A DNA stretch of 64,000 nt from Phycisphaerae bacterium (GCA_012729015.1 JAAYDY010000072.1:8920-72919); one strand, 5' to 3'; positions 23,460 to 51,986 are shown, numbered from the stretch's first letter. The notes: generated by a model not told the origin, from the letters alone. Numbers and translations: made by a program.

Positions 23460-23551
23460 CCCACGCACCGGCTAGAGCCCCTCGCGGCACCCAAATGGCC
23501 GCCGCGTGACTAATCCTTGACACTTGCTTGGATTAGTCTACCATTTGTAAC

Positions 23552-26605: not shown

Positions 26606-28191
26606 GGCTTCGTCCTCCGGGTCTTCTTGCGGGGGCGTGTGGGCTTGGCCTTTGGCTTGGCGGCGTTCTGGGCCTGGCGTTCGGACCGGATGCGTTCGAG
26701 GAGGGCCGAGGCCGGTTCGTCGTTGGGGTCCTGGGCGACGAGCTTGCCCTCGAAGGCCCGCTTCAGGATGCTCTGACGCAGGCGGACGGCTCGTCGCAGC
26801 TGCTTCTCGACGGCATGTTCTGCAGACTCAATGACCGACATTCGCTCTTCCACCATGCTGACAATCTCACGGAGTTCAGTTAGCGAGGGAAGCGGAAGCA
26901 CCTGATTCAGAATGTGGCCAGTTGATACCCGCTGATGACCGGCACTCGACTTGGCTAACGCCTCAATGCGTCGCCTGATCATGGAGGATGCAAAGCAGAC
27001 CACAAGGTAGTCGGCCAGATCGTTCATGAGCGGTTTTCCGCAGAAGATACGATCCGGGAATGCGACTCGTCTTCGATTCAGGCCCCTTACAGTCGAGCAG
27101 ACGGCGACATACTCAATGCTGCCGCTCAGCCGGGTAAAAAGAACATCCCCGTTGCACAGAATGCATTGCTCCCCATCTGCCTTCGCGTCAGGGACATACC
27201 GCACGTCGTCCAAGTCTAAACGACCGGGCCGGACGGAGCTTGACCTCAGTATGGGAAGTGTGGTCGACTCATCCTGCGGCACAACGGTGGAGCCACTGCG
27301 GAGTTCCGACAGCAGGTGGTTACACGTTGCCCAGCACCATCCGGGAGGCAGGTCGGGGAGGCCGGTTGTGTCGGGGGCGGCGGGGGGCTGGTACTTGGCC
27401 TCGACCTTCTTGCGTTCGGCGGGCAGCTTGTCGGCGATCTTGGCTTCGTCCCAGCCGGCCTTCTGCTTGCGGGCCTTCCAGGCGTCGAGCTGGTCGGCGA
27501 TCCACCGTTTGCGGCGTTCGACAAGGATTCGCTCCAGCAGGACCTCGGCCGGCTCAACGTCCGGATGCTCGGCCCGCCACGCAGCAGTCAGCCGCCCCTC
27601 GACGGCCGCCTTGAGCACGCTGGACCGATACCGCTTCAGATTCTTCCGCACCCGTCCCAACGCCGCCACGCCTGCATCCAGGTCTGTCAACAACTCCTCA
27701 ATCTTCTCCACAATCCGCCGCTGCTCGTCCCCGGGAGGAATCAGAAGCTCTGACGCCTCGAACTTCCCCTTCGTGATGTGAGCCAGCCCAGCAGCGCCAT
27801 GTGCTGCCGCAATGTACTCGGCTAGATTCTGATTGATCGCGTACCTGAGAAACCGCTTGTCGATCTCTGCGTCGTTGAACTCAATGCGGAAGATGTGCTG
27901 GTTCAGCAAGGCTGGCCCACGGTTCCAGATGTGTGCCCCGAAAGACGTACCTGGAGTGCCGGACCAGGCAAACAGGAGATCGCCATCACGCACGTGATAC
28001 TTGTTCGCAATCCTGTCTGGACAATGGTTAAACTCGGCTTGGGTGTCGTTGAGATTCTGAATGCGGATGATGGGAAGGCCCTCGCCTTTCCAGTGCGACG
28101 GCTTGAAGGCAAAACCATTGACGAGTGTCATCAATTCGCCAACACGTGCCTTCGTCCAACCCTGCGGAAGCTGTCCATCGTTACTGCTCAA
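26602..28191 (-). CDS. hsdS: Type I R-M specificity subunit (two target-recognition domains, long central coiled coil)
   Basis: 529-aa ORF, TTG start. LPQGWTKARVGEL and LPPGWCWATCNHL open the two TRDs. Conserved helices are QRRIVEKIEELLTDLDAGVAAL and REIVSMVEERMSVIESAE. TRD2 DNA is visibly lower in GC. Confidence 0.9.
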   Translation of the reverse strand: MSSNDGQLPQGWTKARVGELMTLVNGFAFKPSHWKGEGLPIIRIQNLNDTQAEFNHCPDRIANKYHVRDGDLLFAWSGTPGTSFGAHIWNRGPALLNQHIFRIEFNDAEIDKRFLRYAINQNLAEYIAAAHGAAGLAHITKGKFEASELLIPPGDEQRRIVEKIEELLTDLDAGVAALGRVRKNLKRYRSSVLKAAVEGRLTAAWRAEHPDVEPAEVLLERILVERRKRWIADQLDAWKARKQKAGWDEAKIADKLPAERKKVEAKYQPPAAPDTTGLPDLPPGWCWATCNHLLSELRSGSTVVPQDESTTLPILRSSSVRPGRLDLDDVRYVPDAKADGEQCILCNGDVLFTRLSGSIEYVAVCSTVRGLNRRRVAFPDRIFCGKPLMNDLADYLVVCFASSMIRRRIEALAKSSAGHQRVSTGHILNQVLPLPSLTELREIVSMVEERMSVIESAEHAVEKQLRRAVRLRQSILKRAFEGKLVAQDPNDEPASALLERIRSERQAQNAAKPKAKPTRPRKKTRRTKP

Positions 28192-29397
28192 TCACACGTC
28201 TCCTGCCAGGTCCAGCAAGTCCTCGTAGCGTGTCGCTACTGCCGCCTTGAACGACAGAACCTTCTTCACGTCCCTGTCGTCCCTGAGCTTCTTCAGGATT
28301 CCCAATTCACGCGAACCAGACCCCTCAATGATCCGCCGGATGATCGGGGCCGCCCGGTCGCTGTAGAACACCTCCCGAACATGCCCGTATCTGGTGAGAC
28401 CGCCTGGCGTTCCGACGTAGCAGAGCACGAGCCACTTCAGGATCTCCGTGGCCACCTCGTCGGATTGACACTGCGTTAAGCCGCCGACGTCTTCGAGTTC
28501 CTCCAGCGGCGGTGGATGACGTTCATAGTTGCTCCAGCCATGGCCGACTTCGCGGAGACGCCCGAGCAGCCCCGAGAAGAAGTCGTTACGCGTGGCCTGC
28601 TTCAGGTATGCCATTGCCCCTGCGGCGTGGGCCACTTTCATAACGGCCAAAGTGGGCACGGCACGACCGACACGGCCCTGCAGATCAGCCGCTGCGGCAA
28701 TCCTCACCGGAGTACGAGTAGCTCCGGCCAGGTGTTTGATCATCTCGAGTGCGTTGACCCGAACTACGTCGGGTTTCTCTGTATCTAGGGCAGATGACAC
28801 CAGAAAGAGCATGATCTCGCGTTGGCGAGGTTCCGGAGCATTTGCATAGTCGTCGAGGAACTGCTGCTCGGGAAACTGAGGGCGGTCTTGTTCAATCGCG
28901 TCCTTCACATCGGTCACGCGAAGCAGCTGAACCGGATCGCGGCTCAGGACAGCCTCGATGCACGTCTTGAAGATGTAGACGCAGTCCTCAAGGCCGGCTT
29001 CGTACTCATCGTCCTCGTGTTCCAGGTCCCGCCGGATGTCGTAGCACCGTTTGAGCTTCCTCCACTCGGCTCGCGTCAGGAGTCCCATCCGATAGGCCAA
29101 GTCCATGATCTTGTCGTTGGAGTAGTTCTCGATGTCCTCCGGCTTGCTGACGGGCGGCAGCTTGTGTATCTCCGCGGCCTGCTTGGCGATGTCCAAACCG
29201 GCGATGACGATCTTCTCGCGAAGATCATGTATTGCTGCATTCAGCAGACGCTGGCATGCACTGCTGGGGTCCACAGGCATGAGTCGGGTGACTCGCTCGA
29301 TGAGAGAACGATCCGCCCATGCCGGCCTGATCTGGGCAAGGAGGGCCTGTGCTGGGGCAAGTTCCGCTTCTCTCTCAATGGGAAGATCGTCTGCCAT
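28192..29397 (-). CDS. Hypothetical 401-aa protein inside the hsd operon; N-terminal helical region with an Rx4H (HEPN-like) motif
   Basis: ORF whose TGA directly abuts the hsdS TTG. RRDLEH (residues 122-127, nt 29017-29034) lies in an all-helical context, ...WRKLKRCYDIRRDLEHEDDEYEAGLEDCVYIFKTCIEAVL. No other motif recognised. Confidence 0.55.
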   Translation of the reverse strand: MADDLPIEREAELAPAQALLAQIRPAWADRSLIERVTRLMPVDPSSACQRLLNAAIHDLREKIVIAGLDIAKQAAEIHKLPPVSKPEDIENYSNDKIMDLAYRMGLLTRAEWRKLKRCYDIRRDLEHEDDEYEAGLEDCVYIFKTCIEAVLSRDPVQLLRVTDVKDAIEQDRPQFPEQQFLDDYANAPEPRQREIMLFLVSSALDTEKPDVVRVNALEMIKHLAGATRTPVRIAAAADLQGRVGRAVPTLAVMKVAHAAGAMAYLKQATRNDFFSGLLGRLREVGHGWSNYERHPPPLEELEDVGGLTQCQSDEVATEILKWLVLCYVGTPGGLTRYGHVREVFYSDRAAPIIRRIIEGSGSRELGILKKLRDDRDVKKVLSFKAAVATRYEDLLDLAGDV

Positions 29398-29438: not shown

Positions 29439-30200
29439 CTACTGGAAGTACTGGGAGGCTTCGCCGCGATGCTGCTGTGCTCTCCCCTGGCTGTAGGGTA
29501 CCGGCAGGCTTCCTGCTACGGCTTGTGCCAAGTAGGCATCGATCTCGGTTCGCAGACCAACAATCCGTGCTACGTGATTCGCATCATTTGGATTCCACCA
29601 CTTCCACCAGTTATTGGCCATGACGTTGGCGGCGTTCTGGAATGGAGCATCAACGGAGGGATCGGTGCAAACGCCATACGGTGCGGCCTTGGTTTCGGCC
29701 TCGTAGGCAAGAACAATGGCTTCTCCTATGGCGATACCAGCAGAGTAGCGGGGATTATACTGCATGGCCAGCGTGCCTTGGAGCAGGTCTGCACCCAAGA
29801 GCAGCTTGCCCCGAGCCACACCACAGCGGTAGAAGCAGCGATGGACCGTGTTGGCCTTCATGAAATGGCAGGCCAACCTCCTGAAGACACGTTGCACATA
29901 GTCCCTGACGCTCCTACTCTCATCAGACACTGCATAGAACCCGTCGATTACGGGGTAAACGGACACATACGTGGACCTCTCTTCCAGTGCCGCAGCGTGG
30001 AGCCGGCCAACATGGTTGGCGGCTCGAGCAAGCGACGCTTTCATGTGATTCCTTGCTCCCATCAGGTCGATCCATGCGACGGTTCGGGTCTTGGCGGCTC
30101 GGCCCAGATTAGATGCATCAAAGTAGACATCCTTCTCGCTGGACCACGGACTAACGCCAGGCGATCCGACCGCTCCGCTAATCGCTCCCGCTCTGGTCAT
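29439..30200 (-). CDS. Hypothetical 253-aa protein with class III nucleotide-cyclase-like motifs, coupled to hsdR
   Basis: Its ATG overlaps the hsdR stop (ATGA at 30197-30200). VAWIDLMGARNHM, YPVIDGFYAVS, FYRCGVARGKLLLG and IAIGEAIVLAYEAE occur in the order and spacing of the cyclase beta1 metal-Asp, beta2 metal-Asp, RIGIHxG and GxxVNxAARxE elements. Confidence 0.45.
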   Translation of the reverse strand: MTRAGAISGAVGSPGVSPWSSEKDVYFDASNLGRAAKTRTVAWIDLMGARNHMKASLARAANHVGRLHAAALEERSTYVSVYPVIDGFYAVSDESRSVRDYVQRVFRRLACHFMKANTVHRCFYRCGVARGKLLLGADLLQGTLAMQYNPRYSAGIAIGEAIVLAYEAETKAAPYGVCTDPSVDAPFQNAANVMANNWWKWWNPNDANHVARIVGLRTEIDAYLAQAVAGSLPVPYSQGRAQQHRGEASQYFQ

Positions 30201-33016
30201 GCCACAAGCCTTTCGTTTAGCTCCGCCAAGATCGTATCGAGACGATCACCGAACAGCTGATAGGCCCGGCCGAGGTCGCCATGCTGGGCGAACCATCCGA
30301 GGGAGAAGTCCTCACGCTCGACGCGGACGCTGGTGGCGATAGCCTGGGCGATCTGGTCCAGCCACTGCCGCTGCTCTGGCGTGAAGGTCACGCCCATCTT
30401 GCCTTGCTCGTCAAGCCACCTCTGATAGCGTTCCATGACCACCGTGGCGAATGGCGTGAGCGGTTCGTCGGGGTGGATGGCGTGGAGGATCAGCGTGACG
30501 ATGTCGGCCAGCTGGCGGCCGCCGGAACCGCGGACCTTGGACTTGTCCAGGGCCTCGTAGGCGTGCCACAGAAGCTCGGGCGTGGCCTCCAGCGGGGGCC
30601 GCTGGATCAGTTGGGCGATGGACTTGATGTCGTCGAAGTCGACCTTGTTGCCGTAGCGGCGGGAGTAGATCAGTTCCAGGGCCATGATTTCGGCCTTGTT
30701 CTCCTCGATCCACTGGCGGAACGTCTCGATCTTGCCGCGGGCCTTCTCCTGGGCGGCGGCGTCGAAACCGGCGATGGTCACCTCGTCGAGGCTGATGCGG
30801 TCGATGGTCTGTTCATTGGCCGCCTTGATCTCCAGCAAGCGGTTGCGGAGTTCCGGGTTGTGAAGCGGCATGACGGCGGTGCGGGCCAGAGACTCGGCCG
30901 CATGGTCAATCTGTTCCTGCGTGGGCTGGGTGTCATCGGCCAGGCCGTTGGCGGATCGGGCTTCCTCAAGCTGGCGGTCGGGATCAACGGCGGCCACCAG
31001 TGCCCCGGCCAGGTCGGAGAGCGTCTTGCCGCCGGCCAGGTCCGCCAGTTCGCGTTTCTGGGGATCGGTGATCTCCTGGTCGAGCCGAGCCAGGCGAGCG
31101 GCCAGCGTGCTGAGGGCATCGGGATCGGTGCCGCCCATGGCCACATAGTTCAGGAGCTTCTTCAGCGAGACGCTGGGCTGGCGGTTGAGCGGGGCCGAGT
31201 CGGTCTTGTCGTGTTCGCACACGCCCACGCAGTCGACGATCACGAAGCGACTCTTGGCCTTGGCGTCGGGCGTGACGGCCTTGAGGTCGTCGGGGCGGAT
31301 GACGCGGACGCCGCGACCCTTCATCTGCTCGAAGAAGTTGGCCGACTTGACGTTCCGCATGAACATGACAATCTCCAGAGGCTTCACGTCGGTACCCGTG
31401 GCCACCATGTCGACCGTGACGGCAATCCGGGGGTTGAAGCTGAGGCGGAAGGCAGTCAGCACGTCGTCGGGCGTCATGGCGGAGACCTTCTTCCAGGTGT
31501 GGCCGCCACCCTCGGTCGGCACCCGCATGAAGCCCGTGCGGTAAGTGATCTTCTGGCAGAAGTCGTTCCCGCGGCCGAACTCCTCGCGGATGATGTTGAC
31601 GATGTCCTCGGCGTGCGAGTCGTCCTTGGCGAAGATGAGCGTCTTCGGGACCTCGGTGCGGCCGGGGAAGATGTCGGTGAAGAGCTTGTCGCGGAAAGTG
31701 CGGATGACCGTGCGAATCTGGTCCACCGCCACCACGTCGCGGTCGAGCTGGTTGGCCGTGTAGGTCAGGTCGTCGTCGAGTTGCTCGTAGCGGACGCGGC
31801 GGGTCAGGCGGTCGCGTTTGTCGACCAACTGGCCGGCGTCGATGGTCTCCCCGGACTCAGTGATCTTGGTGCTGATGCGGTACACGTCGTAGTTGACGTT
31901 CACGCCGTCGGCCACGGCCTCGGGGTGGGTGTACTCCATGACCAGGTTGCGGTTGAAGAAGCCGATGGTCTGCTTGCTGGGCGTAGCCGTGAGGCCGATG
32001 ATGTAGGCGTCGAAGTAGTCGAGCACTTGACGCCAGAGGTTGTAGATGCTCCTGTGACATTCGTCGACAACCACGAAGTCGAACGTCTCGATAGGCACGT
32101 TCGGATTATAGGCGATGGGCGGTGGTGGAGCGGACAGCGGGATGCCGGAGTCGAACATCGATCCCTCTTCGACGGCCGGGTCGAGTTCTGCCTCGCCCCG
32201 GAGGATCGAATAGAGTCGCTGCACCGTTGTGATGACCACACGGTTGACCGTACCGATGCTGTTCGTGCTGAGTCGCTGGATGTTGTAGATTTCGGCGAAG
32301 GTGCGGCCGTCGTCCGGTGTGCGGAACTGGCGGAACTCGGTCTCGGTCTGGCGGCCCAGGTTCGTGCGGTCGACCAGGAAGAGGACCCGCCGGGCATCGG
32401 CGTGCTTGATGAAGCGGTAGACGAAGTTGGCAGCGGTGAACGTCTTGCCGCTGCCGGTCGACATCTGGATCAGGGCCTTGGGGCGGTCCAGGGCCATGGA
32501 CTGCTCCAATTGGGCAATCGCTCGGATTTGGGCTTTCCACAGGCCCTCGGTCACCAGTGGCGGCATCTGCCGCAGGCGACCCCTGAGTTGCTGGCCGTCG
32601 TTGGCCCAGTCGAGCAGCGTCTCTGGCCGGTGGAAGTGAAACAGGTCCCGGCTGCGGGGATCGGGATCGCGATTGTCAGTGAACCGGGTTTCCTCGCCCG
32701 TGGACTCGTAGGCGAACGGAAGCGGCCGGGCGTAGGCAGGCAGGTCGTCAGGCAGCCCCTCGGAGTAGCGGGCCGACTGTGGCTCGACGCCGGTCAGCGT
32801 GTGTCCCACAGCCTTGGCCTCGACCACGCCGACAGCCTTGGCATCGACGTAGAGCAGGTAATCCGTGAAACCGAAGCCGGACTTCAGGGGGAACTCACGG
32901 ACCGCGATGCCCCGTCCAGCGGCCAGGTTCAGCCCGGACATCGACTGGACGATCCACCCCGCCGCGGCCAGCTTGGCGTCGATGTTTTCACGAGCTTGGG
33001 CTTCTGGACTCGGCAC
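30197..33016 (-). CDS. hsdR: Type I restriction enzyme R subunit (nuclease + SF2 helicase + EcoEI-type C-terminal domain)
   Basis: 939-aa ORF with a GTG start and GAGGTGG upstream. Motifs: ARENIDAKLAAAGW, nuclease DYLLYVDAKAVGVVEAKA, helicase MSTGSGKTFTA, VVVDECHRS, GLTATP and QMKGRGVR. Confidence 0.95.
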   Translation of the reverse strand: MPSPEAQARENIDAKLAAAGWIVQSMSGLNLAAGRGIAVREFPLKSGFGFTDYLLYVDAKAVGVVEAKAVGHTLTGVEPQSARYSEGLPDDLPAYARPLPFAYESTGEETRFTDNRDPDPRSRDLFHFHRPETLLDWANDGQQLRGRLRQMPPLVTEGLWKAQIRAIAQLEQSMALDRPKALIQMSTGSGKTFTAANFVYRFIKHADARRVLFLVDRTNLGRQTETEFRQFRTPDDGRTFAEIYNIQRLSTNSIGTVNRVVITTVQRLYSILRGEAELDPAVEEGSMFDSGIPLSAPPPPIAYNPNVPIETFDFVVVDECHRSIYNLWRQVLDYFDAYIIGLTATPSKQTIGFFNRNLVMEYTHPEAVADGVNVNYDVYRISTKITESGETIDAGQLVDKRDRLTRRVRYEQLDDDLTYTANQLDRDVVAVDQIRTVIRTFRDKLFTDIFPGRTEVPKTLIFAKDDSHAEDIVNIIREEFGRGNDFCQKITYRTGFMRVPTEGGGHTWKKVSAMTPDDVLTAFRLSFNPRIAVTVDMVATGTDVKPLEIVMFMRNVKSANFFEQMKGRGVRVIRPDDLKAVTPDAKAKSRFVIVDCVGVCEHDKTDSAPLNRQPSVSLKKLLNYVAMGGTDPDALSTLAARLARLDQEITDPQKRELADLAGGKTLSDLAGALVAAVDPDRQLEEARSANGLADDTQPTQEQIDHAAESLARTAVMPLHNPELRNRLLEIKAANEQTIDRISLDEVTIAGFDAAAQEKARGKIETFRQWIEENKAEIMALELIYSRRYGNKVDFDDIKSIAQLIQRPPLEATPELLWHAYEALDKSKVRGSGGRQLADIVTLILHAIHPDEPLTPFATVVMERYQRWLDEQGKMGVTFTPEQRQWLDQIAQAIATSVRVEREDFSLGWFAQHGDLGRAYQLFGDRLDTILAELNERLVA

Positions 33017-33222: not shown

Positions 33223-36156
33223 TTAGCAGCCGGGCTGCCTGTCACGCCGGTCCATCGAATGCGGCGAATCGCCCGCCGCAGGCTCCGATTTCGTCAGAAC
33301 TGCAAGCTGGAAACGAAGTCCGGCGGCGGCCGACTCCGGCAAGGGCACTCGGGCGGCCAGTTTCTCGGCCGCACAAACGTCGTTCGCATACTCGTCGTAC
33401 TCTTCGCCCATCAGGATGCTGAACCATCGACGGCGGTCGACGACCACGCGATACATCTTCTCATCCTGGGTCTGGCTGACGTAGGGCAGGAAGACCTGGA
33501 TCGACCTGCCGCAGACTTCCGCCTTGGCCCCGATCCGGTCGATTCGGCCGGTCCGCTGCTCCAACGTGCTGGGATTCCAGCAGAGGTCGTGGTGGATGAC
33601 GTGTCGGCAGTTGAGGTGCAGGTCGACGCCTTCGGCCATGACACTGCTGGCGACGAGAATCTCCGGATAGAACGGGGTGTTGAAGGTAAGCATCAGCCTC
33701 TGGCGGGTGATTTGTCGGGTGCTGCCATTGACCAGGCGGACATTCGGCAGCAGTGCTTCCGTGCCCGCCTGCTGGAGTTCATCGTCGGAGTAGTAGGAGG
33801 CCAGCCTTTCACCGATGTGCGATCCGGTCTGCACTGACAGGAGGGCCTCGACGTACCGGTCGATCAGCTCCGGCTCGCCCAGACGGTGGGCCAGGAACTC
33901 GAAAAAGTTGCGGAGTTGCTGACGAAGAGAAAGACCGGACGCGTCTTCCGTCTCAAGGGCCTGACGGACGGAGTCCTCATCCTGCCGCGTGCGTTCCAGC
34001 GGGAAGAACCGGGCCAGGAAGGAGGGCGTCCGCAGATTCCTTCGGACAATCTCCACAAGGTCATCGCAGCGACCGGCCAGTGGCGGAAACTCGGAGAGGA
34101 TGGCTCTGATTTCATGGTCGCAGGCCCGACGCACGGGAGAGTCCGTGTCGAAGAAGCGGTCCCCCAGACGCTCCAACTCGATCTCTGCCTCTGTGGTGGG
34201 ACATCCCAGCTTGGCTGCGGCCTGTTCGGCTGTCTTTCGGCGAATGGCCTCGGAGATGCGTTCACGAAGGGCTCGACCGGTAGCCACGTAGTGGCAGAAG
34301 ACAACCACCTTCTCGCCCCGAGCCCACGTCTCAACAGCCCGTTGCACTGTAGCCGCAATCTTGGGGTGCCCGGCCATGGCGAGCGGATCGTTTCGAGGCA
34401 GGAACTTCTCGAGCTGAGCCAGGTACCACATAGCCGTCTTGTCGATGGCTGATTTCACCGGCGGGTCGTCGTCACCGTCGAGAATCGAGTTCACATCGGC
34501 TTCGGCACCTGCCGGGTCCTTAGCCACGCGTTGCCGAGTCAGCAGAAAGGCCTCATAACTGGAGGCAAGACCTTCGGCGAAGACCGGCCGCGACTTGGGC
34601 GTGCAGGCCGTCGCCCGGGCAGCCAGCAGGAACGGCAACAGGCTCTGCCCCTGAATGGAGATGCCTTCACTGCTACCGGGGTTGCCATCGCCAACGAGAA
34701 GAATCCGCCGGCCGGGTAGTTCATCTCTTCGCGGCACCCCTTGGAACGGATTTGGAAGAGCCTTGGGCCTTACGTGCCTGATGACCCACGGGGCGAGGAC
34801 CTCCTCGGCCCGTTTCATAGAGGGCTGCACGCGGCTGAAGCACGACAGAACTTCCTGCAACTTAGGCGACACATCACGGCCATTCATCGCGGCAGGCCAC
34901 CAGTCGTCCTCGGGAGAGTGCGGCACACCGTCGATCTTCAGATCTGACTCGTCCAACCGGCTCCAGACCTTGTCCAGTGTCAGCGATGACTGCTGGGCTG
35001 CGTCAAGCCGGCGGCGAAGCTCGCTAACCTGCTCCAGGAAGGTCTTGCGGGACTGCGAGTCCGCCATCCGGGTTCCGGAGAACCGCTCGATCACCGAGCA
35101 GAGTTCGTGATGCCCCAGTTGGAACGGCGTGGCCGTCAGAAAGAGCATCCGCTCGAACACGCCATGCAGAGCTCCCCGCTCGACGATGGCGGCGTCATCC
35201 TGGGCTTCGGACACCTGAAACAGGCCGGCCAGCCGCGTGCCCGGATTCTTCAGGTGATGGGCCTCGTCGAGAATCAACAGCGGCAGGCGGAATCTCATCC
35301 GCTGGATGGCCAGATCCCAGAGCTTGCGGATTTCATCCCGGATGGCATGACGGGCCTGCTTCAGATGCCATTCGTAGTGCTTCGTCTGTCGCTGAGGAAC
35401 GTCCCGATTGAGAACCGCGTAGAGTTCATCGGTGTCCCGAGCCCTCAGCTTCTCGAGCACGGCCAGCAGAGCCGCCGGCACAGGGTCATCGTCGTTATCG
35501 GGGTTTCCGTCTCCCTCCGGATCGACGTCCCAGGCATGGAGCACCGTCAGCCAGTCGGACGGCAGTTTTCTCAGCAACTCCTCCCACATCTCGGGGTCTC
35601 TGTCCGCCCGACCCAGCCTGAGCAGACGGCCGGCCGTGCGGCCCAGCACCCGTCGCAGTTGTTTCGTTTGGTGCCGACCGTGAAGAGCCCGGTGAATGAA
35701 GGCCAGCTTCATCCAGCCATCATCCAGTGCCCGGTTCATTGCTCCGTGCGTAAGGAAGATGAGACTGCTCCGCCGATCCTTCGGATCGTCAAGCAACTTC
35801 AGGAACGTGGTGGCCTTGTCGGCTTTGCCATAACGCAGTCTGGCCTGAGCCTCCTGGGGCAGACACCGTTTGCGAAACAGCTCGAAGTCGTGCGGCCACT
35901 TCTCCTTCAGCGACGGAGGAACCATAGCGACCACCGGCCGACCGCCAGCGTCATTGAGGGCAACGGAGGCCGCAACCGCCAGGGCTACAAATGTCTTGCC
36001 CATCCCGACTTCATCCGCCAGAACCAGTCCCGGCTGTTTCGCCAACCGGCGCAGAATCTCACCGGCGGTCGCGGTCTGCCGGCTCGCGTCTTCGGAGGAG
36101 ATGCGGCCTTCGATGTACAGGTTGAGGCCTGAGAACAAGGGGTGTTGCCATGTCAT
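33223..36156 (-). CDS. SNF2-family helicase (977 aa)
   Basis: Motifs LADEVGMGKTFVALAVA, LLILDEAHHLKN, LFLTATPFQ, ILVASSVMAEGVDLH, HHDLCWNPSTLEQRTGRIDRIG. Its ATG overlaps the stop of the PLD gene (ATGA at 36153-36156). Confidence 0.9.
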   Translation of the reverse strand: MTWQHPLFSGLNLYIEGRISSEDASRQTATAGEILRRLAKQPGLVLADEVGMGKTFVALAVAASVALNDAGGRPVVAMVPPSLKEKWPHDFELFRKRCLPQEAQARLRYGKADKATTFLKLLDDPKDRRSSLIFLTHGAMNRALDDGWMKLAFIHRALHGRHQTKQLRRVLGRTAGRLLRLGRADRDPEMWEELLRKLPSDWLTVLHAWDVDPEGDGNPDNDDDPVPAALLAVLEKLRARDTDELYAVLNRDVPQRQTKHYEWHLKQARHAIRDEIRKLWDLAIQRMRFRLPLLILDEAHHLKNPGTRLAGLFQVSEAQDDAAIVERGALHGVFERMLFLTATPFQLGHHELCSVIERFSGTRMADSQSRKTFLEQVSELRRRLDAAQQSSLTLDKVWSRLDESDLKIDGVPHSPEDDWWPAAMNGRDVSPKLQEVLSCFSRVQPSMKRAEEVLAPWVIRHVRPKALPNPFQGVPRRDELPGRRILLVGDGNPGSSEGISIQGQSLLPFLLAARATACTPKSRPVFAEGLASSYEAFLLTRQRVAKDPAGAEADVNSILDGDDDPPVKSAIDKTAMWYLAQLEKFLPRNDPLAMAGHPKIAATVQRAVETWARGEKVVVFCHYVATGRALRERISEAIRRKTAEQAAAKLGCPTTEAEIELERLGDRFFDTDSPVRRACDHEIRAILSEFPPLAGRCDDLVEIVRRNLRTPSFLARFFPLERTRQDEDSVRQALETEDASGLSLRQQLRNFFEFLAHRLGEPELIDRYVEALLSVQTGSHIGERLASYYSDDELQQAGTEALLPNVRLVNGSTRQITRQRLMLTFNTPFYPEILVASSVMAEGVDLHLNCRHVIHHDLCWNPSTLEQRTGRIDRIGAKAEVCGRSIQVFLPYVSQTQDEKMYRVVVDRRRWFSILMGEEYDEYANDVCAAEKLAARVPLPESAAAGLRFQLAVLTKSEPAAGDSPHSMDRRDRQPGC

Positions 36157-38216
36157 ATGCCTGCCTCCTCGAAGGCTGACTCGACATACTGGCCGAGGTT
36201 GGCCTCCGCCCCTCGAACAGCCCTCTGAATGTCAACACACAGTTCACCAATGGTCTGTCTGATCGCTTCGCGGACCTTTGCTGGCGGGAGGCAGCCGGCA
36301 CAGGATTTGGGCTGCACCCGCGAAAGCTCCAGGGCAAGTTCCGTCAGCAGGAAACTCTTCTCTTCGTCATTCACCCCTTCCTTGAGGATCGCTTTGGCCA
36401 GAGCCTTGACGCCGACAGGCCCGTGAAGCCGCCAGGCAAGGCTCTCCGCCGTGCCGACCGGCTGCTCCAGCCGCTCCCGCATTCGCGACAGGGCGAGCGA
36501 CACACGACGCGTCCTCTGCAGGAGGAAGCCCGAGGTGTCGACGCGTCTGTGAGGGTCAACGTCAGGCCCTGGAACTGGCCCGGAGATCTGCCGAGACCGC
36601 GACAGTTCGCGGAGCAGCACGTGCAGTGGTCGGGCCGAGGACAGGATTCGCACCAGATCGTCGAGCGACAGGTTACGCAGTTCGTCCGGAGGCGGCAGCA
36701 CTCGAGCGTCTTCAACGTTGACCGGCCACCAGGCAGGCCCGGCCGCCCCCATCCAGCGGACGTTGAAGCCCGAGGGGGCTGCATTGCCCATTGGCCAAGG
36801 GATGCGTACCTCCGCCGGGGTCCCACCGGCCAGCCACCGTGCTTCGTCGTAGAGCGGCGGAGTGCCCTCTTCCTGTTGAACTGACCAGCCGGCAGGCGGC
36901 TGCCCATTGAAGGTCAGCACCACCTCATGGCTCTGGTCATCGCAACTCCGGAAGGTAGCCGGCCCAAACTCTGCCGGCAGAACGATCTCGCTGGAAGGTT
37001 CATCCTCGTTGGCGGCCGAGTCAGGCTCCAGCCACCGGCAGGCATCGGTCTCGATTTCCTCTCCGTCCAGGCTACCCGCCGCAAACTGTTCCAGAGCCTT
37101 CTTGTCCGCAGCATTGGAGAGAAGATAGAGCAGATTGGCTTCGATGTTGGTCCGAGGACCAAGACCCAGCCCGGCCGTGGTGAAGTTGCTCGACCCGATG
37201 AGGTGCCCCCACCAGCAATCGCTTTCCAGCCAGAGACTCTTGGCATGCAACGGACGGCCCTCAAGTTCAAGGCGGCTTATGCAAACCTCGACGTCCGAAC
37301 GGTGGAGGGGTCCGGTTTCGATCAGGGACCTGGGGGCATGGACAAGAAGCTTCTCCTCGCCGGGAATCTCCTCCACAATGACGTTAAACTCGGCTGTGGC
37401 CTCACCCTTCTGATTCAGGAGGTCCCAGAGAGCTCCGGCCGGTTTGTTGGGCTGGTCATTCTCGGGGGGATCAAAGAACGGGCTGGTAACCACGGCCCAC
37501 TTCGGTGGACCGCCGCTCGGCCAGTTCTTCCGGATCGACGCAAAGGCATCAGGTCTGCCGGGGCCCGTGACGACCAGACAGACACGAGGGCCTTTCCTCG
37601 GCGTGCTCTCTCTACCCCACGACTTCCTGACTGCGAGTTGACGAACCCGCTTGAGGAAGCCTTGCCATCGGCCGAGGGCCCGACACTGGTCAGCGGGCCA
37701 GGACACCAAGGCAGAGGCCTCGCCAAGGAAATCGAGCACCTCTCTCAGGCAGTCCAACGGGCTTGCGGAAGCTTCGTGGTAATCCAGGACCCCGAAGATC
37801 TCCTGGTTCCGCTGATAGCCGTCCGGCGTCAGGTTCGCCGAGGCTACGACCAATCGCACTAGGTTGCTCCAGGCCAGCAGCGAGACCTTGGCGTGCAGTA
37901 TGCCCTTCTGAATGCGGGCTGGCAGCAAGTCCCAACGCAGACTCCGTGTGCCCCGGCAGTTGTGCTGGTCCACGAGCACCGCCGCACAGGCCAACTGCGA
38001 GAGCTTCTCCTCCCGCTCTACCAGGTAGAGCTTCCCGTCCTCGTTGGCACCGGTCTCCATCTGTACCAGGCGACCGAGGCACTGCTCCTCGAAGAACACC
38101 GGATCGAAGGTGAACGTAGTCGCCACGCAACCGATCGGGCTGCCCGCGTCGAGCGGTGGGGTCCAAGCGTCGAGCAGCCGACCGTATCCGGGCTGGGTAT
38201 CGCGTCGCTTTCTCAT
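36153..38216 (-). CDS. Phospholipase D-superfamily (HxK) nuclease-like protein, two HKD-type motifs (687 aa)
   Basis: GILHAKVSLLAWSNLVRLVVASANLT and PLHAKSLWLESDCWWGHLIGSSNFTTAG are two HxK...(S)xN motifs. Its ATG overlaps the upstream stop (ATGA at 38213-38216). Confidence 0.85.
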   Translation of the reverse strand: MRKRRDTQPGYGRLLDAWTPPLDAGSPIGCVATTFTFDPVFFEEQCLGRLVQMETGANEDGKLYLVEREEKLSQLACAAVLVDQHNCRGTRSLRWDLLPARIQKGILHAKVSLLAWSNLVRLVVASANLTPDGYQRNQEIFGVLDYHEASASPLDCLREVLDFLGEASALVSWPADQCRALGRWQGFLKRVRQLAVRKSWGRESTPRKGPRVCLVVTGPGRPDAFASIRKNWPSGGPPKWAVVTSPFFDPPENDQPNKPAGALWDLLNQKGEATAEFNVIVEEIPGEEKLLVHAPRSLIETGPLHRSDVEVCISRLELEGRPLHAKSLWLESDCWWGHLIGSSNFTTAGLGLGPRTNIEANLLYLLSNAADKKALEQFAAGSLDGEEIETDACRWLEPDSAANEDEPSSEIVLPAEFGPATFRSCDDQSHEVVLTFNGQPPAGWSVQQEEGTPPLYDEARWLAGGTPAEVRIPWPMGNAAPSGFNVRWMGAAGPAWWPVNVEDARVLPPPDELRNLSLDDLVRILSSARPLHVLLRELSRSRQISGPVPGPDVDPHRRVDTSGFLLQRTRRVSLALSRMRERLEQPVGTAESLAWRLHGPVGVKALAKAILKEGVNDEEKSFLLTELALELSRVQPKSCAGCLPPAKVREAIRQTIGELCVDIQRAVRGAEANLGQYVESAFEEAGI

Positions 38217-39550
38217 GCCCGTGCCCTCCCCAGGTCGGATAAGAAACTCATCAGGGGTTGCGTTCGGTAGCCGTGCACATAGGACTTGTCGTGCCGGCCG
38301 CCCTCTTCGACACGGTACGCCGGCTGGAGTACCAGACCTCCGTCATCGTAGCGGTCAATCCAAGGCTTCTTCCCATTGGGTGGTTTGCCCTGTTGAATCC
38401 TCAGATGATGGTCGATCAGCCGCTCGACCCAGGTCTTCCCATCACATTGCTCGCCGGCGAAGTCGAAGTGGTCCGCAAACTCAGCGGCCAAGGCGTCGTC
38501 GGCCTGAGTCAGCTTCTCATGTGCCGCTGCAAACGCGGCCGGCAACTCGCGACAGGAAGAGCGGACACCCTCCAGCTTGGCCAGTTCGGCCGGGGAGACC
38601 TTGCCGTGGACTGTAGTCAGTCTCCGCCGACAGTCTTCGAACGCATCCTGAATCAGGCGGGCGAAGTGCTCGTACGCCTGAATCGCCTCAAGCAGTCGTC
38701 GCAATTCTGGTGGGGCCGTCTTTCTCATGGCCTCATGAACGTGGCGTTCAATCGCCCCAAGCGACCCTGAACCGTCTGCAAAGGGCTGCGTGAGCTTCTG
38801 GCCGGCATCGGAGACCAGAAAGTCGAGCACCTGCCGGCGGAAGCCGTTGCCCGGGCTGCGGATGATCTCATAGAGCGTGCGAGCTTCCCTGCGGCCCACC
38901 TCATATTGGCCCAGGTGATTCGAGAAGAACTCGCGGTATCTCCAGTTGGCCCTGCGGGCCACGCAGCCGGTTTCCAGTCCGTCATCAACGGCTTCGCGAA
39001 GACGCTGGAGAACCAGATGGCCGTCTCCTCCTCCCGTGCCGACGAAGCCAGCCAGGTTCTGCTCGTCCGCCCAGGTCTCAAGAAGCTGATACCCAGGACC
39101 GCCGAGTTGGTCCGCCACCTGGATCTCGAGTTCCCGGGCCAGGATCCGGTAGACTCCGTGGAAACCGTAGACCGATGGCGTCTTCAGATAACGCTTTGCA
39201 GAGAGGGGCACATTGTCTCGTATCGCCGAGGTCGCTTTGTCCCGCCCCGGCAGGCCACGCAGCTCATCGCCTCCCGAGGCAGTCCTCACCATGAACTCAA
39301 CCATGTACCATTCGAAGACCTGCCACGGCTCGCTCACTCCATCGCTGGCTACGATGTCGTCGGGGAAACTTGACGTGACGTGGAGCGACACGGCCAGAGC
39401 TGTCAGGAATCGCGGGTGCTGTTGCCGTTCCCGCACGCCTGGCACGAGTTGAACGGCCAGACGGTCGGCTGTGGCATAAAGCCCGAGCGGATCGAGTGAT
39501 CCCTCACCGAGGATCTCGTCGTCCCGCAACGAGAGAAGTGGCGTCAACAT
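38213..39550 (-). CDS. Hypothetical 445-aa protein, first gene of the PLD/SNF2 operon
   Basis: Long ORF with protein-like composition (MLTPLLSLRDDEILGEGSLDPLGLYATADRLAVQLVPGVRERQQHPRFLTALAV...). No catalytic motif recognised by eye. Confidence 0.6.
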   Translation of the reverse strand: MLTPLLSLRDDEILGEGSLDPLGLYATADRLAVQLVPGVRERQQHPRFLTALAVSLHVTSSFPDDIVASDGVSEPWQVFEWYMVEFMVRTASGGDELRGLPGRDKATSAIRDNVPLSAKRYLKTPSVYGFHGVYRILARELEIQVADQLGGPGYQLLETWADEQNLAGFVGTGGGDGHLVLQRLREAVDDGLETGCVARRANWRYREFFSNHLGQYEVGRREARTLYEIIRSPGNGFRRQVLDFLVSDAGQKLTQPFADGSGSLGAIERHVHEAMRKTAPPELRRLLEAIQAYEHFARLIQDAFEDCRRRLTTVHGKVSPAELAKLEGVRSSCRELPAAFAAAHEKLTQADDALAAEFADHFDFAGEQCDGKTWVERLIDHHLRIQQGKPPNGKKPWIDRYDDGGLVLQPAYRVEEGGRHDKSYVHGYRTQPLMSFLSDLGRARA

Positions 39551-40105: not shown

Positions 40106-40795
40106 ATGCCATTTACCTACGACTATCCTCGACCAGCGCTCGCCGTGGACTGCGTGGTCTTCGGACTGGACGAAGAGGACTTGAAGGTCCTGTTGATCCG
40201 CCGGGGGCAGGAGCCGTATGCGGGCCGCTGGGCGTTGCCCGGCGGTTTCGTTCGCGAGAACGAGTCTCCCGCAGCCGCTGCCCGTCGCGAACTGCACGAG
40301 GAAGCCGGTCTGCGTGACGTGTACCTGGAGCAGTTGTACACGTTCGGCGCGCCGGGCCGCGATCCACGCGGCCACGTGATCAGTGTGGCCCACTATGCCC
40401 TGGTCAGGCTCAGCGATCATCGTGTTGCAGCGGCGACGGATGCATCGGATGCCGCCTGGTTCGGCACCGACGACTTGCCCCGGCTGGCGTTCGACCATGG
40501 AGCCATTTTCGAAATGGCCCACGCCAGGCTCAGGGCCAAGGTCCGGTACCAGCCGATCGGGTTCGAGTTGCTGCCCGAGAGGTTCCCGCTGCGGATGCTC
40601 CAGCACCTGTACGAGGTGGTTCTCGACCGTCCACTCGACAAACGGAACTTCCGCAAGAAGGTCCTGGAAATGGGCATCCTCGAGGAACTGGATGAAGTCG
40701 AGACGGACGTTTCACACCGGGCCGCGCGGTTGTACCGTTTCAGCAAGGCACGGTATCAAACGCTGACGAAGAAGGGGTTGAACTTTGAACTCTGA
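40106..40795 (+). CDS. nrtR: Nudix-related transcriptional regulator of NAD metabolism (Nudix domain + C-terminal winged helix)
   Basis: ORF 40055..40795, trimmed to the ATG at 40106 (GAGGTGG upstream). Nudix box [24 protein letters not shown]. The C-terminal part reads [32 protein letters not shown], typical of NrtR. Confidence 0.8.
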
Positions 40796-41891
40796 CCGGA
40801 GCCGCCACGCCAACGCACACGCCGCCGACAGCCGGGAGGACCGGTTGGCGGGATGTCTGCTGGGAACCGCGGTCGGTGACGCCATCGGCCTGCCCCGCGA
40901 GGGCATGTCGCCACACCGCGCCATCAGGCTGTTCGGCGAGGCCCCGCTGGGACACAGGTTCCTGGCTGGTCGCGGCATGGCGAGCGACGACACGGAGCAC
41001 GCCTGCATGGTGGCGGCGTCACTGCTGGCCAGCCACGGCCAGCCAAGGCGATTCGCGCGGTCTCTGGCGTGGCGGCTGCGCTTCTGGCTTGCCGCGTTGC
41101 CCGCCGGCGTCGGGTTGGCAACGGCAAGAGCGATCTGCAAGTTGTGGTTGGGGTTCCCGCCAAGCCACAGTGGCGTGCGGTCCGCAGGCAACGGTCCGGC
41201 GATGCGGTCACCGTTGATCGGCGTCTGGGCCGGCGGTGACATGCCCAGACTCAGGGAGTTGGTTGAAGCCTCGACTCGACTGACGCACACGGACGTCCGT
41301 GCCGTGGAAGGAGCCGTGGCGGTTGCCCTGTGCTGCCACTACGGTACCACGCGAACAGCTGCGGAGGTTGACGCTACGGAGGTCTTCGAGTTGCTGCAAC
41401 GCGAGGTGACAGACGCGGAGTTGCTTCAGGCGCTCTCAGCGACGCGGTCAGCGGTTGACCGAGCGATCGGGCCGGAGGAGTTCGTCCGCGACATGGGTTT
41501 CCAGAAAGGCGTCAGCGGCTACATCGTCCACACGCTGTCGGCGGCCCTGTTCTGCTGGCTGCGTCACCCTGGCGACTTCCGGGCGGGCATTGAGGAAGTC
41601 GTCCAGATGGGCGGCGATGCCGACACCACCGGTGCCATTACCGGCGCACTGTGCGGGGCCACCGTGGGGCGTAGGGGCATACCGGCGGAGTGGGTGAAGG
41701 GCCTGTGGGAATGGCCACGAACGGTGGCGTACATGGACCGCCTCGCCGAGGCCCTGTCCGAATCGTCGCCGGGCGGGCAAGGCACCAACAGGGTGCCTCG
41801 CTGGTTCTGGCCGGGTGTCCTGCCCAGGAATCTGCTTTTCCTGCTGGTCGTATTGCTGCACGGATTGCGAAGGCTGTTTCCTCCATACTGA
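40785..41891 (+). CDS. ADP-ribosylglycohydrolase family protein with hydrophobic C-terminal tail
   Basis: [31 protein letters not shown] and [17 protein letters not shown] are ARH/DraG motifs. The longest ORF starts at a TTG (40785); the TTG at 40845 after GGGAGGA is an alternative. The tail reads [12 protein letters not shown]. Confidence 0.85.
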
Positions 41892-41914: not shown

Positions 41915-42508
41915 GTGCCTGACTGGTTGCCGACCGTTGTCGAGTGGACCGCTGCCGCTCTTGGATTCGCCTGCGTGGTGCTGACCGTACGGCAGAACAT
42001 GTGGTGTTGGCCGACGGGGCTGCTCCAGGTGCTGCTCTACATCTACGTGTTCCTGAGCGCCCGGCTGTACTCCGACATGATCCTGCATGTGATCTACGTT
42101 GTGCTGCAGGTGTATGGCTGGTGGGCCTGGCTGCATGGGGGGAAGGACAAGGGGCGGCTGCAGACCTCGTGGTTGTCGGGAAGGGTCAGGGCGGCGTGGG
42201 CGCTGGTGATCTTCGCTGGCACGTTCACCTGGGGCTTTCTCATGGCTCGCTTCACCGACGCGGCGCTGCCCTACTGGGATGCGGCGACCACCGTGCTCAG
42301 CATTGTCGCCCAGTACTTACTGGCACACAAGAAGATCGAGAGTTGGGTCCTCTGGATCGTGGTTGACATACTTTGTGTGGGCATCTACTTCGTCAAGGAC
42401 CTGCACACGACCATGGTTCTCTATGCCGTATTCCTCGTTCTGGCGGTCATGGGGCTCAAGAAATGGACGCAGAGCACTCAAAAGCAATTGGCAGCGGCAC
42501 CGGCCTGA
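41915..42508 (+). CDS. pnuC: Nicotinamide riboside transporter
   Basis: GTG start 6 nt after GAGGAGG (41902-41908). VEWTAAALGFACVVLTVRQNMWCWPTGLLQVLLYIYVF...YSDMILHVIYVVLQVYGWWAW and WVLWIVVDILCVGIY are PnuC hallmarks. Confidence 0.85.
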   Translation: MPDWLPTVVEWTAAALGFACVVLTVRQNMWCWPTGLLQVLLYIYVFLSARLYSDMILHVIYVVLQVYGWWAWLHGGKDKGRLQTSWLSGRVRAAWALVIFAGTFTWGFLMARFTDAALPYWDAATTVLSIVAQYLLAHKKIESWVLWIVVDILCVGIYFVKDLHTTMVLYAVFLVLAVMGLKKWTQSTQKQLAAAPA

Positions 42509-43506
42509 TCCTGGGCAAATTCATGCCGCCGCACCTCGGCCACCAGTACCTGGTCGACTTCGGGCGGCATTACGTCCGCGAACTGACCGTGCTGGTCTGC
42601 TCGCTGCCCTCTGAGCCGATCAGCGGTGAGCTGCGCTATCGCTGGATGTGCGAGATGTTCCCACAAGCAACCGTTCGCCTGGTCCACGTCACCGACGACC
42701 TACCGCAGGAACCGAAGGACCACCCCCAGTTCTGGCAGATCTGGCACGACGTGGTACGTCGGTACCTGCCTTCAGGGCCGGACTTCGTCTTCGCCTGCGA
42801 GGACTACGGGTATCGCTTGGCCGAGATTCTCGGAGCCAGGTACATCCCCGTTGACCGGGGCCGCGACCTGGTGCCGGTCTCGGCAACCGCGATTCGTAAC
42901 GACCCCATGGCCCACTGGCGGTACATTCCTCCGGTCGTGCGCCCGTACTATGTCAGGAGGGTCTGCCTGTTCGGCCCGGAGTCCACAGGCAAGACGACAC
43001 TCGCAGCCGACCTGGCAAAGCACTACGACACGGTCTGGGTCGGTGAACACGCCCGCCCACTGCTTGATCACAAGGCCGGCGTGTGCGACGTCGCCGATAT
43101 TCCGCTGATTGCCCGAGGCCAGATCGCCGCCGAGGAAGCCCTGGCCCGCCAAGCCAACCGGATCCTGATCTGCGACACGGACCCTCTGCTCACAACCGTC
43201 TGGAGCGATGTCCTGTTCAATGGGTGCCCGGACTGGCTGCATTCTGCCGCGGAGCAAAGGCATTACGACCTTTACCTGCTACTGGACGTGGACGTGCCTT
43301 GGGTCCAGGACGGCCAGCGCTATCTGTCACACGCTCGCCGGGATTTCTTTGTCCGCTGCAGAGACGTGCTGACGCAGCTCAATAGACCCTTTGTGGGGAT
43401 CAAGGGCAACTGGGACGAACGTCTCGCTGCCGCAACGCGAGCGATTGATGACTTGCTGTCGCCAAGAAGAGCCGGTTCAGTTCAACCCAACGCCGCTCCT
43501 TCGTAG
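42463..43506 (+). CDS. nadR: NadR-type bifunctional NMN adenylyltransferase / ribosylnicotinamide kinase
   Basis: ORF 42373..43506, trimmed to MDAEHS.... GLILGKFMPPHLGHQYLV is the (H/T)xGH nucleotidyltransferase motif and FGPESTGKTTLA the kinase P-loop. Overlaps the pnuC end by 46 nt. Confidence 0.9.
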   Translation: MDAEHSKAIGSGTGLILGKFMPPHLGHQYLVDFGRHYVRELTVLVCSLPSEPISGELRYRWMCEMFPQATVRLVHVTDDLPQEPKDHPQFWQIWHDVVRRYLPSGPDFVFACEDYGYRLAEILGARYIPVDRGRDLVPVSATAIRNDPMAHWRYIPPVVRPYYVRRVCLFGPESTGKTTLAADLAKHYDTVWVGEHARPLLDHKAGVCDVADIPLIARGQIAAEEALARQANRILICDTDPLLTTVWSDVLFNGCPDWLHSAAEQRHYDLYLLLDVDVPWVQDGQRYLSHARRDFFVRCRDVLTQLNRPFVGIKGNWDERLAAATRAIDDLLSPRRAGSVQPNAAPS

Positions 43507-43697: not shown

Positions 43698-44789
43698 TCA
43701 GCCTATAGTCTCTACCGGCCGACCTTGCGGATCGCGGATGACCGTCTGCTCTATGTGAAACGTCACATCGGCCGTGCCTGGCAGAGCGAAATCCCCCCGG
43801 CGCGGTTGAAGGGCCGCCACCAGGGCCTTGGTCGAGTCGGCGTCCAGTGTCAGGACCAGACGCTGAAGTGGTTGGCCAGGTGTGGCGCCATCTGTATTCT
43901 CGGCTCGCCATCCCGGCTTCCCGGGTTCAAACACGAGTTGAGAGCCATCCTCTAACTGGAGAATGAGTTCGCGACCGAACGGCAGGCGGCCTTGCACGAT
44001 CCTCGCCACTTCCGCGACCCCGCCGGCACCCAGGTAGACATCGGCCCGCCTTCCGCCGAACAAACGGCTGCTCACCTTGAACCGCGTGTACCCGTCAAAC
44101 AGGAAGCCCGTGCTGGAGCCTTCCCGGGCAGTTCCCTCGGCAATGCGTTTGGCAGCCTCCGGATTCGAAAGCACCGACAGTCGGCGCAGGTCGATGATGC
44201 CAAGGGCGTTCACGGCGTTGAGTTCCACCAGAACCGCCTCGTTCTTCCAGGCTTTCATCGCTGCCAGTTCGTCCCCAGTGATTCCCACGATCTGGATGAA
44301 GTCCACGTGTCCATTGGGGGTATCGATGCTTCCCAGCGCGGGGTCCAGCCTGGCAGTCATGGCTTGGATTTCCGTGGGGTCGCCCGCGCAGATCGGACCG
44401 TTCAGGTCCATAGTGTGGCCGTCGCCGAAGACGTTGCCCGTACTGGCAATGTAGTGGCCCACGTTCTCCAAGAAGTTGATGGCCCAGTTGGGCGGACCTT
44501 GCTCGCCCTCGGCACGCTTCACGCGCAGCGTCAGCTCCAGGCCGAAGCCACTGACCTCGCGGTTGGGCGATTCCTTGTCATACAGTTCGGTCAGCCCCGC
44601 CGATACGAGCAGCCAATGTGGCTCCGGCTGATCCACATGCCGCACGTAGATGTCGTCCAGTGCCTGCTCTCCACCCAGCATCCGCGGGATCGGACTGTGC
44701 ATGACCAGGGCGTTGGGGTCCGGATGGGTCTTGTCGAGGGCCGCTTCGAGGGCGGCGTATCCGACCGGGCTGTCATTGTCATCGCTCAT
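43698..44789 (-). CDS. Suppressor-of-fused (SUFU)-like domain protein
   Basis: 363-aa ORF. PEPHWLLVSAGLTELYDKESPNREVSGFGLELTLRV matches the bacterial SUFU domain signature. Confidence 0.8.
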   Translation of the reverse strand: MSDDNDSPVGYAALEAALDKTHPDPNALVMHSPIPRMLGGEQALDDIYVRHVDQPEPHWLLVSAGLTELYDKESPNREVSGFGLELTLRVKRAEGEQGPPNWAINFLENVGHYIASTGNVFGDGHTMDLNGPICAGDPTEIQAMTARLDPALGSIDTPNGHVDFIQIVGITGDELAAMKAWKNEAVLVELNAVNALGIIDLRRLSVLSNPEAAKRIAEGTAREGSSTGFLFDGYTRFKVSSRLFGGRRADVYLGAGGVAEVARIVQGRLPFGRELILQLEDGSQLVFEPGKPGWRAENTDGATPGQPLQRLVLTLDADSTKALVAALQPRRGDFALPGTADVTFHIEQTVIRDPQGRPVETIG

Positions 44790-44996: not shown

Positions 44997-45251
44997 CGGC
45001 GTAGGGCTGATTGGCCGCCTTCAGTTCCGCCGACATCGCTTTGAACCTGGCTCGAAGCTGCTTCACTCGGGATTCCTCTTACGGGGTGCCTGCCCATTGT
45101 GCGCGTCCGGAGTGTGCCCGTCAACAAGCTGCCAAGGACTGTTGGAGACGGCGGTTGCCATGGCGACTGGTACGGGCTATCATCACTGGCTATCATCAGC
45201 AGCCTGTCGGGTTGTGTTATTGCGTATTGCTGCAGAACGAAGAGGTTTCAG

Positions 45252-50144: not shown

Positions 50145-50152
50145 TTCGTTTC

Positions 50153-51976: not shown

Positions 51977-51986
51977 AGGAACCCCC

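Follow-up and report, generated by a model that had tools for sequence, protein, structure and literature searches.

The Azaca system (ZacA-ZacB-ZacC), said to have been introduced by Millman et al. in 2022, consists of a leader protein with DUF6361 (ZacA), a phospholipase D (PLD)-family nuclease (ZacB) and a superfamily 2 (SF2) helicase (ZacC). In the system of Bacillus massilioanorexius (BmAzaca), cutting of T4 DNA requires each of ZacA, ZacB and ZacC and depends on the Walker A motif of ZacC and the active site of ZacB, and the system protects more than 10^6-fold against T4; discrimination has been suggested to read hypermodified bases (bioRxiv 10.1101/2025.07.10.664194). A second system of similar composition, PDC-M27, belongs to a set of 145 phage-defence candidates whose prediction was based on genes lying within BREX, DISARM or type I restriction-modification (R-M) systems (bioRxiv 10.1101/2024.01.29.577857); a literature search for PDC-M27 by name returned the general description of the PDC candidates only. 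Here we describe a three-gene operon, the trio, on the minus strand of a 64,000-nucleotide (nt) stretch of DNA from a Phycisphaerae bacterium (GCA_012729015.1 JAAYDY010000072.1:8920-72919; hereafter the window, with positions counted from its first letter). The trio is probably a self-contained, horizontally mobile cassette directed against phages or other mobile genetic elements, and would represent a divergent branch of the Azaca/PDC-M27 group.

Composition and conservation of the trio

The operon comprises gene A, the leader (38213-39550, minus strand, an open reading frame (ORF) of 445 amino acids (aa)), gene B, encoding a PLD-family nuclease (36153-38216, minus strand, 687 aa), and gene C, encoding an SNF2-like SF2 ATPase (33223-36156, minus strand, 977 aa). 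The stop codon of A overlaps the start of B in an ATGA at 38213-38216 (gggcATGAgaaag, read on the minus strand at 38216-38213), and the stop of B overlaps the start of C in the same way at 36153-36156 (catATGAcatgg, read at 36156-36153). A preliminary description of the window, made from the sequence alone, had proposed this three-gene minus-strand operon, and both the ORF coordinates and the two ATGA overlaps are confirmed in the sequence. A, B and C are real genes rather than chance ORFs, as more than 500 homologues exist for A and more than 1,400 for B.

Related loci, 70 in number, were collected in a scan of one genome per species and span at least 10 phyla, including Planctomycetota, Verrucomicrobiota, Acidobacteriota, Nitrospirota, Desulfobacterota, Chloroflexota and Bdellovibrionota, in addition to Gamma- and Zetaproteobacteria, Spirochaetota, Sumerlaeota and others. 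Wherever a locus extends far enough downstream, A is directly followed on the same strand by B and then by C, which bears out the conservation of the trio that the preliminary description had left to be surveyed. A 4-nt overlap is the commonest spacing between A and B and joins B to C in about 40 of 56 related loci, and the pairwise distances of A, B and C correlate with r = 0.92-0.95 across 43 trios. All-versus-all clustering of 700 flanking ORFs returned three recurrent families only, namely A, B and C, with neither a fourth conserved gene nor any methylase clustering with the trio, and the 276-aa ORF upstream of A has no homologue in any related locus. The trio is inherited as one translationally coupled unit. 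Because of the conserved gene order, the overlaps, the co-evolution, the lack of a fourth gene and the invariant motifs described below, the operon is best viewed as a self-contained three-gene cassette with a predicted catalytically competent nuclease and ATPase.

The leader was initially noted as a 445-aa protein without any recognizable motif, and indeed it has no match among Pfam, PADLOC or NCBIfam models even at E <= 10. Its homologues, more than 500 when clustered at 90% identity, are 433-445 aa in length, about 50% identical and without exception unnamed and devoid of Pfam domains, and an exhaustive profile search at E <= 1e-3 recovered 905 representatives at 50% identity, 365 of them with E <= 1e-30. 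The AlphaFold2 (AF2) model of A is all-helical (pLDDT 84.6, pTM 0.85); Foldseek searches with this model against PDB and BFVD gave zero fold matches, and the A profile gave zero matches to PDB sequences.

Protein B carries two HKD-type motifs, H108-A-K110 ... S126-A-N128-L-T130 (37827-37895, minus strand) and H324-A-K326 ... G341-S-S-N-F-T346 (37179-37247, minus strand), so that the two HxK...SxN motifs initially ascribed to the PLD protein are both present, and they are invariant across 56 homologues. The Pfam PLDc_2 model scores 24.2 bits on B, under its gathering score of 27. In the AF2 model (pLDDT 85, pTM 0.87), residues ~1-400 adopt a two-lobed PLD fold, which precedes a beta-rich domain (~416-500) and a helical one (~517-685). 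Sequence, AF2 model and Foldseek comparisons together assign to B the features of the PLD superfamily, that is, two HxK...N motifs, one predicted active site and a two-lobed fold. More than 1,400 clusters of B exist at 90% identity.

Protein C possesses a Walker A motif (GMGKT, residues 51-55, at 35992-36006), a Walker B/motif II (DEAH, residues 297-300, at 35257-35268) and a helicase motif VI (QRTGRIDRIG, residues 867-876, at 33529-33558), all on the minus strand, together with TATPFQ (341-346) and GVDLH (843-847). The SNF2 motifs had been described as complete, and the ATPase motifs are all conserved across 43 homologues. Pfam Helicase_C (57 bits) and SNF2-rel_dom (29.7 bits) both score over threshold, so that Walker A, DEAH, motifs III, V and VI and both Pfam domains expected of an SNF2-like SF2 protein are found in C. 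An insertion of approximately 450 residues separates the two RecA lobes, the second of which sits at the very C-terminal end of the protein.

Relationship to Azaca, PDC-M27 and DISARM

Among 5,027 PADLOC models, B is best matched by ZacB (2e-11), followed by PDC-M27B (8e-6) and DrmC (8e-5), and C by PDC-M27C (7e-40), followed by DrmD (3.5e-27) and ZacC (3e-23). At the level of individual hidden Markov models (HMMs), the alignment of C to PDC-M27C (7.1e-40, 135 bits) joins residues 743-899 to model positions 672-829 of 892, and that to ZacC (2.9e-23, 80 bits, two stretches) is colinear and partial, the best stretch joining 819-876 to 843-900 of 1019. The helicase-C domain of C, at 819-876 of 977, corresponds in relative position to that of ZacC and of PDC-M27C but not to that of DrmD. 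B aligns to ZacB with 41 bits in two stretches, the best of which (B 41-157 on 236-347 of 586) is partial and not colinear in relative position, and to PDC-M27B over 39 residues (8.3e-6, 22.7 bits), where B 103-141, with the first HKD motif, falls colinearly on 104-143 of 635.

The leader appears to be remotely connected to these systems through its family. Among 75 A-family members that are 28-49% identical to A, 18 match PDC-M27A (best 4.6e-6) and 12 match ZacA (best 5.1e-5), with weak E-values, and every other PADLOC model is matched by at most one of the 75; in a sister clade of 77 members, the family of the Methylocystis leader described below, 22 match PDC-M27A and 11 match ZacA (best 1.2e-5). 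Pfam DUF6361 is matched neither by the window A protein (E <= 10) nor by any of the 75 family or 77 sister-clade members (E <= 1). Sister-clade trios are carried by plasmids of Methylocystis, Rhodoferax and Vibrio. The distant Methylocystis trio was found via B, and its 446-aa leader is homologous to A over its full length, with hhalign giving 97.5% for the single sequence and 98.7% (E = 1.9e-16) family against family; this leader in turn matches ZacA at 32-90 and PDC-M27A at 389-455, colinearly. The plasmid trios of Vibrio nigripulchritudo (L084) and Rhodoferax antarcticus (L085) have gene sizes as in the PDC-M27 models, their leaders align with the A profile over the full length (hhalign 96.2% and 94.7%), and their PLD and helicase proteins are colinear with B and C. 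As a separate observation on the Methylocystis sp. MJC1 plasmid (NZ_CP107561.1; L071/L072), the trio helicase gene spans the origin of the record and is absent from the PLSDB gene table, and a QueC-like 7-cyano-7-deazaguanine synthase and an XRE regulator are encoded ~3 kb upstream of the trio.

Taken as a whole, the trio shares with Azaca a tightly linked, co-directional order of leader, PLD nuclease and SF2 helicase, the lack of a methyltransferase, the relative placement of the helicase-C domain and the model matches given above, which are partial for B and C and confined to the family level for A. It differs in that ZacA carries DUF6361, which A lacks along with any match to ZacA; in that B and C are matched in part only and at levels well short of what a system caller accepts; in that the HKD lobes of B are N-terminal and followed by a C-terminal extension of ~290 aa, as opposed to an HKD region at 236-347 of 586 in ZacB; and in that the tested Azaca is from Bacillus, whereas the trio occurs in Planctomycetota and other environmental phyla. 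With PDC-M27 it shares the best PADLOC match of C, the colinear first HKD motif of B, the leader length (445 aa against a PDC-M27A model of 460), the commonest family-level match of A, and the homology of A to the leaders of the PDC-M27-sized plasmid trios; it differs in that window A is unmatched, B is matched over 39 residues only and C over its C-terminal third only. The preliminary description had considered that a named system might account for all components of the trio, and this is so at the level of remote, sub-threshold homology but not beyond it. On these comparisons the trio very probably belongs to an Azaca/PDC-M27 superfamily, and we conclude that A/B/C, PDC-M27A/B/C and ZacA/B/C are best described as branches of that one superfamily. 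The window branch appears architecturally nearer to PDC-M27 than to Azaca proper, as judged from the position of the first HKD motif of B and the length of A, and divergent enough to escape current models. The trio is not categorically new, since its three-part design is that of Azaca and the relationship, if remote, is detectable; it is nonetheless a large, unannotated and structurally divergent branch whose leader has no Pfam or NCBIfam model.

The same components had initially been called DISARM/Dpd-like, and this part of the description is not upheld, the nearest relatives being PDC-M27 and Zac proteins. DISARM does combine an SNF2-like ATPase (DrmD) and a PLD nuclease (DrmC) in a defence context, the same pairing as C and B, and the weak matches to DrmD, DrmC and DpdE (3e-15) could be read as the remnants (DrmD/DrmC or DpdE/DpdK) of a degenerate or minimal DISARM or Dpd system whose partner genes were lost. 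Those matches are limited to the generic helicase-C and HKD cores, and the NCBIfam scores lie far below the equivalog cut-offs, with 114.4 bits against 610 for DrmD on C, 24 against 133 for DrmC on B and 75.8 against 500 for DpdE. The helicase-C domain, C-terminal in C, is mid-protein in DrmD (539-629 of 1040), and DISARM has no ZacA-like leader. As initially reported, the window neighbourhood contains no drmA, drmB (DUF1998), drmMI/MII, dedicated methylase or dpdA/queC-type deazaguanine genes; DrmA, DrmB and Dpd genes are likewise missing from every related locus, and no extra gene recurs among the 70 loci. Moreover, dozens of loci spanning phyla keep the trio whole and together, unlike a set of remnants. 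Membership of DISARM or Dpd was rejected on the curated score cut-offs, and a remnant origin can be given almost no credence.

Several points weigh against placing the trio in an Azaca/PDC-M27 branch of mobile defence cassettes. PDC-M27 is itself a predicted 'guilt-by-embedding' candidate (bioRxiv 10.1101/2024.01.29.577857). The window A protein matches no ZacA, PDC-M27A or DUF6361 model, and its homology to ZacA and PDC-M27A is visible at the family level only, with weak E-values, so that the proposed A-ZacA link rests on recurrent weak HMM matches together with matching gene context. The matches of B and C to the Zac and PDC-M27 models span the catalytic cores only, and the first HKD motif of B falls on ZacB 236-347 of 586, implying a domain layout unlike that of ZacB. 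Window-type trios were not found on viral contigs or plasmids, a tblastn search of plasmids with A found nothing and no relative was found among viral contigs; the mobility of the trio we infer from patchy phylogeny and variable context only. Finally, the closest solved fold of B is that of Tdp1, a repair enzyme.

Structural relatives and genomic context

Foldseek places the PLD part of B closest to Tdp1 (E = 1e-10), then to vaccinia F13 and to two restriction enzymes, SauUSI and NgoAVII, through their PLD domains. Tdp1 likewise has an HKN-type PLD active site and two lobes in one chain, with a TM score of ~0.45-0.5 on the target; it is only 13% identical to B, is a eukaryotic repair enzyme without helicase or leader partners, and lacks the beta-rich and helical C-terminal domains of B. 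The alternative of a non-immune module with a housekeeping or accessory role in DNA repair or chromatin, in which a Tdp1-like phosphodiesterase clears covalent protein-DNA or blocked-end adducts with the help of an SNF2 translocase, draws on this fold (human and yeast Tdp1, E = 1e-10 to 1e-7), on the lack of the canonical Asp in the motifs of B as in those of Tdp1, on PDB sequence matches of C to RapA, Sulfolobus SNF2/Rad54 and Rad26, and on trios that lie among housekeeping genes. Such a role in repair is improbable, given that each of the three components has a remote homologue in a defence system validated by experiment, that Foldseek also links B to SauUSI and NgoAVII, that decayed copies of the cassette exist, and that the distribution is patchy and phylum-hopping, with ~50% identity between phyla. 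Contexts vary as well: in a neighbourhood survey that consisted of clustering and a handful of annotated contigs, type I R-M, TIR, WYL, DUF2779, integrase and transposase genes adjoin the trio in some loci and housekeeping genes in others. Cultured carriers include Rhodopirellula europaea 6C and Rubripirellula obstinata. Of the decayed copies, one (L076, 10001-16203) has a B shortened to 524 aa and a C shortened to 777 aa, with a DDE transposase and a KAP NTPase as neighbours, and five others (L066-L070) retain N-terminal fragments of A only, among them those of the cultured Planctomicrobium sp. SH664 and Neorhodopirellula pilleata Pla100. In two unrelated loci the trio is preceded by DUF2779 and WYL genes, once on a Rhodoferax plasmid with a PDC-M27-sized trio (L085, 1-2449) and once on a metagenomic contig with a window-type trio (L078, 3995-6453); these genes may be a shared regulatory or defence neighbour.

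A plausible functional analogue of the trio is provided by the SauUSI-type (type IV) enzymes, which carry out ATP-dependent, modification-dependent restriction. In these, too, PLD nuclease and SF2 motor are combined and a cognate methylase is lacking, and the PLD domain of SauUSI matches the PLD lobe of B (Foldseek E = 1e-4). SauUSI consists of one polypeptide that includes a target-recognition domain, whereas the trio splits its functions over three proteins, in which no modified-base reader domain was identified.

The trio is followed downstream, on the same strand, by the hsdR (30197-33016), hsdS (26602-28191) and hsdM (24533-26074) genes of a type I R-M operon. The distance from the stop codon of C to hsdR is 206 nt, in agreement with the ~200 nt initially given, and the gap has no convincing terminator; a scan for promoters and terminators around the operon gave no signal above shuffled expectation, and therefore co-transcription of the trio with hsdR is neither excluded nor shown. 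The preliminary description had further suggested that the trio might use the methylation of this system for self/non-self discrimination, in effect as a restriction module that reads the adjacent type I R-M mark. Adjacency recurs in Schlesneria sp. metagenome-assembled genomes, where a homologous hsd operon directly precedes A on the same strand (L025, 3-5759; L021, 4-810), and type I R-M genes are near the trio in L018, L053 and L073. In the fetched flanks of the 70 loci, 53 of which have at least 5 kb of flank, HsdM-like genes occur in five loci, at distances of up to 10 kb, and HsdR in two. The hsd genes are upstream in some loci and downstream in the window, and in L073 are on the opposite strand ~3.7 kb away; lone trios lie between leu/LysR or PSCyt2/DUF1501/glutamate-synthase genes (L077, L079-L083), and a methylase does not cluster with the trio. 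Conserved linkage to hsdR/M/S was thus not found, and dependence on hsd is not supported because HsdM-like genes are rare and lie on either side of the trio. The co-occurrence of ~9% fits ordinary defence-island clustering, and the variable context is that of a mobile cassette clustering with other defence genes, not of functional dependence on hsd methylation; the chance that the trio reads this mark is very slim. Between the Schlesneria and window operons, HsdM is 58% and HsdR 46% identical, the same two modules being adjacent in different order.

Two ORFs on the minus strand between hsdR and hsdS, of 401 aa (28192-29397) and 253 aa (29439-30200), have no Pfam, PADLOC or NCBIfam match and are without counterparts among the 70 related loci. 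Under the published 'guilt-by-embedding' reasoning, they too qualify as candidate defence genes. The trio and the hsd operon share a stretch of lower G+C content (0.617 at ~16000-47000 and 0.627 in the trio, compared with 0.678 at 1-15000 and 0.654 at 47000-64000), which is consistent with a horizontally acquired island. Neither an integrase nor a flanking tRNA was identified for this ~16-47 kb island, the only Rfam hit in the window being a tRNA (Leu) at 59493-59564, distant from the trio. Upstream of the trio are genes for an ADP-ribosylglycohydrolase (40785-41891), an AAA_28 ATPase (42373-43506), a SUFU-like protein (43698-44789) and a NERD nuclease-related protein with a Top1-type zinc ribbon (45099-46538), and these may add other defence or toxin-immunity functions to the island. 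The low-GC stretch also holds an AbiEi-like gene (22354-23523), which is flanked by two copies (22067-22109 and 23424-23457) of a 34-nt near-perfect palindrome, TTGCAGATTGAAyATCCrATmTTCAATCTGCAA, that could be an operator or recombination site. Direct repeats of 160-243 nt and 86-87% identity (15896/17968 and 16227/20795, with a third partial copy at 19553) adjoin an ORF at 17984-19198 with a weak Imm7 match, and the repeats, at 15896-20954, look like duplicated ends of immunity or toxin cassettes.

Proposed mechanism and significance

By analogy with BmAzaca, the trio is likely to be a defence system that works as a nuclease-helicase complex. In such a scheme A, B and C would assemble into a complex, C would load on or translocate along DNA with ATP and thereby license B to cleave, B would cut the DNA via a phosphohistidine intermediate, and A would act as an obligatory adaptor or sensor subunit. 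As the trio is not accompanied by a modification enzyme of its own, the cue for self/non-self discrimination would be a feature of the invader DNA, either a base modification, as suggested for Azaca and as in type IV enzymes such as SauUSI, or a structure linked to replication or to DNA ends. This is the least certain step of the mechanism; that discrimination reads a property of foreign DNA instead of the absence of a host mark is advanced only tentatively, and a host methylation mark as the signal is unlikely.

A more far-reaching and rather doubtful idea is that this clade and the Pfam-blind sister clades are functionally an immune system of their own rather than one more Azaca. The all-alpha ZacA-like leader, with a fold that lacks a solved or viral counterpart, might then sense the invader, and the two-lobed, Tdp1-like PLD enzyme, with its additional beta-rich domain, might act on a cue other than hypermodified cytosine, for which protein-capped or structured DNA ends and replication intermediates are candidates. 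If true, this would mean methylase-independent self/non-self discrimination in phyla such as Planctomycetota.

The trio leaves the current view of how Azaca/PDC-M27-type systems work unchanged. It exposes a gap in annotation, as a family of ~900 A clusters at 50% and more than 1,400 B clusters at 90% identity is everywhere recorded as 'hypothetical protein', with a leader missed entirely by current Pfam, NCBIfam and PADLOC v2 models and at least three leader clades without any Pfam model. The type composed of a leader, a PLD nuclease and an SNF2-like helicase is far wider and more varied than one would gather from the named systems. A large family from many environmental phyla, among them such as Planctomycetota whose phage defence is essentially unstudied, is now linked to an experimentally validated defence system, and the cultured carriers offer starting points for the role of the essential and enigmatic ZacA-like subunit.

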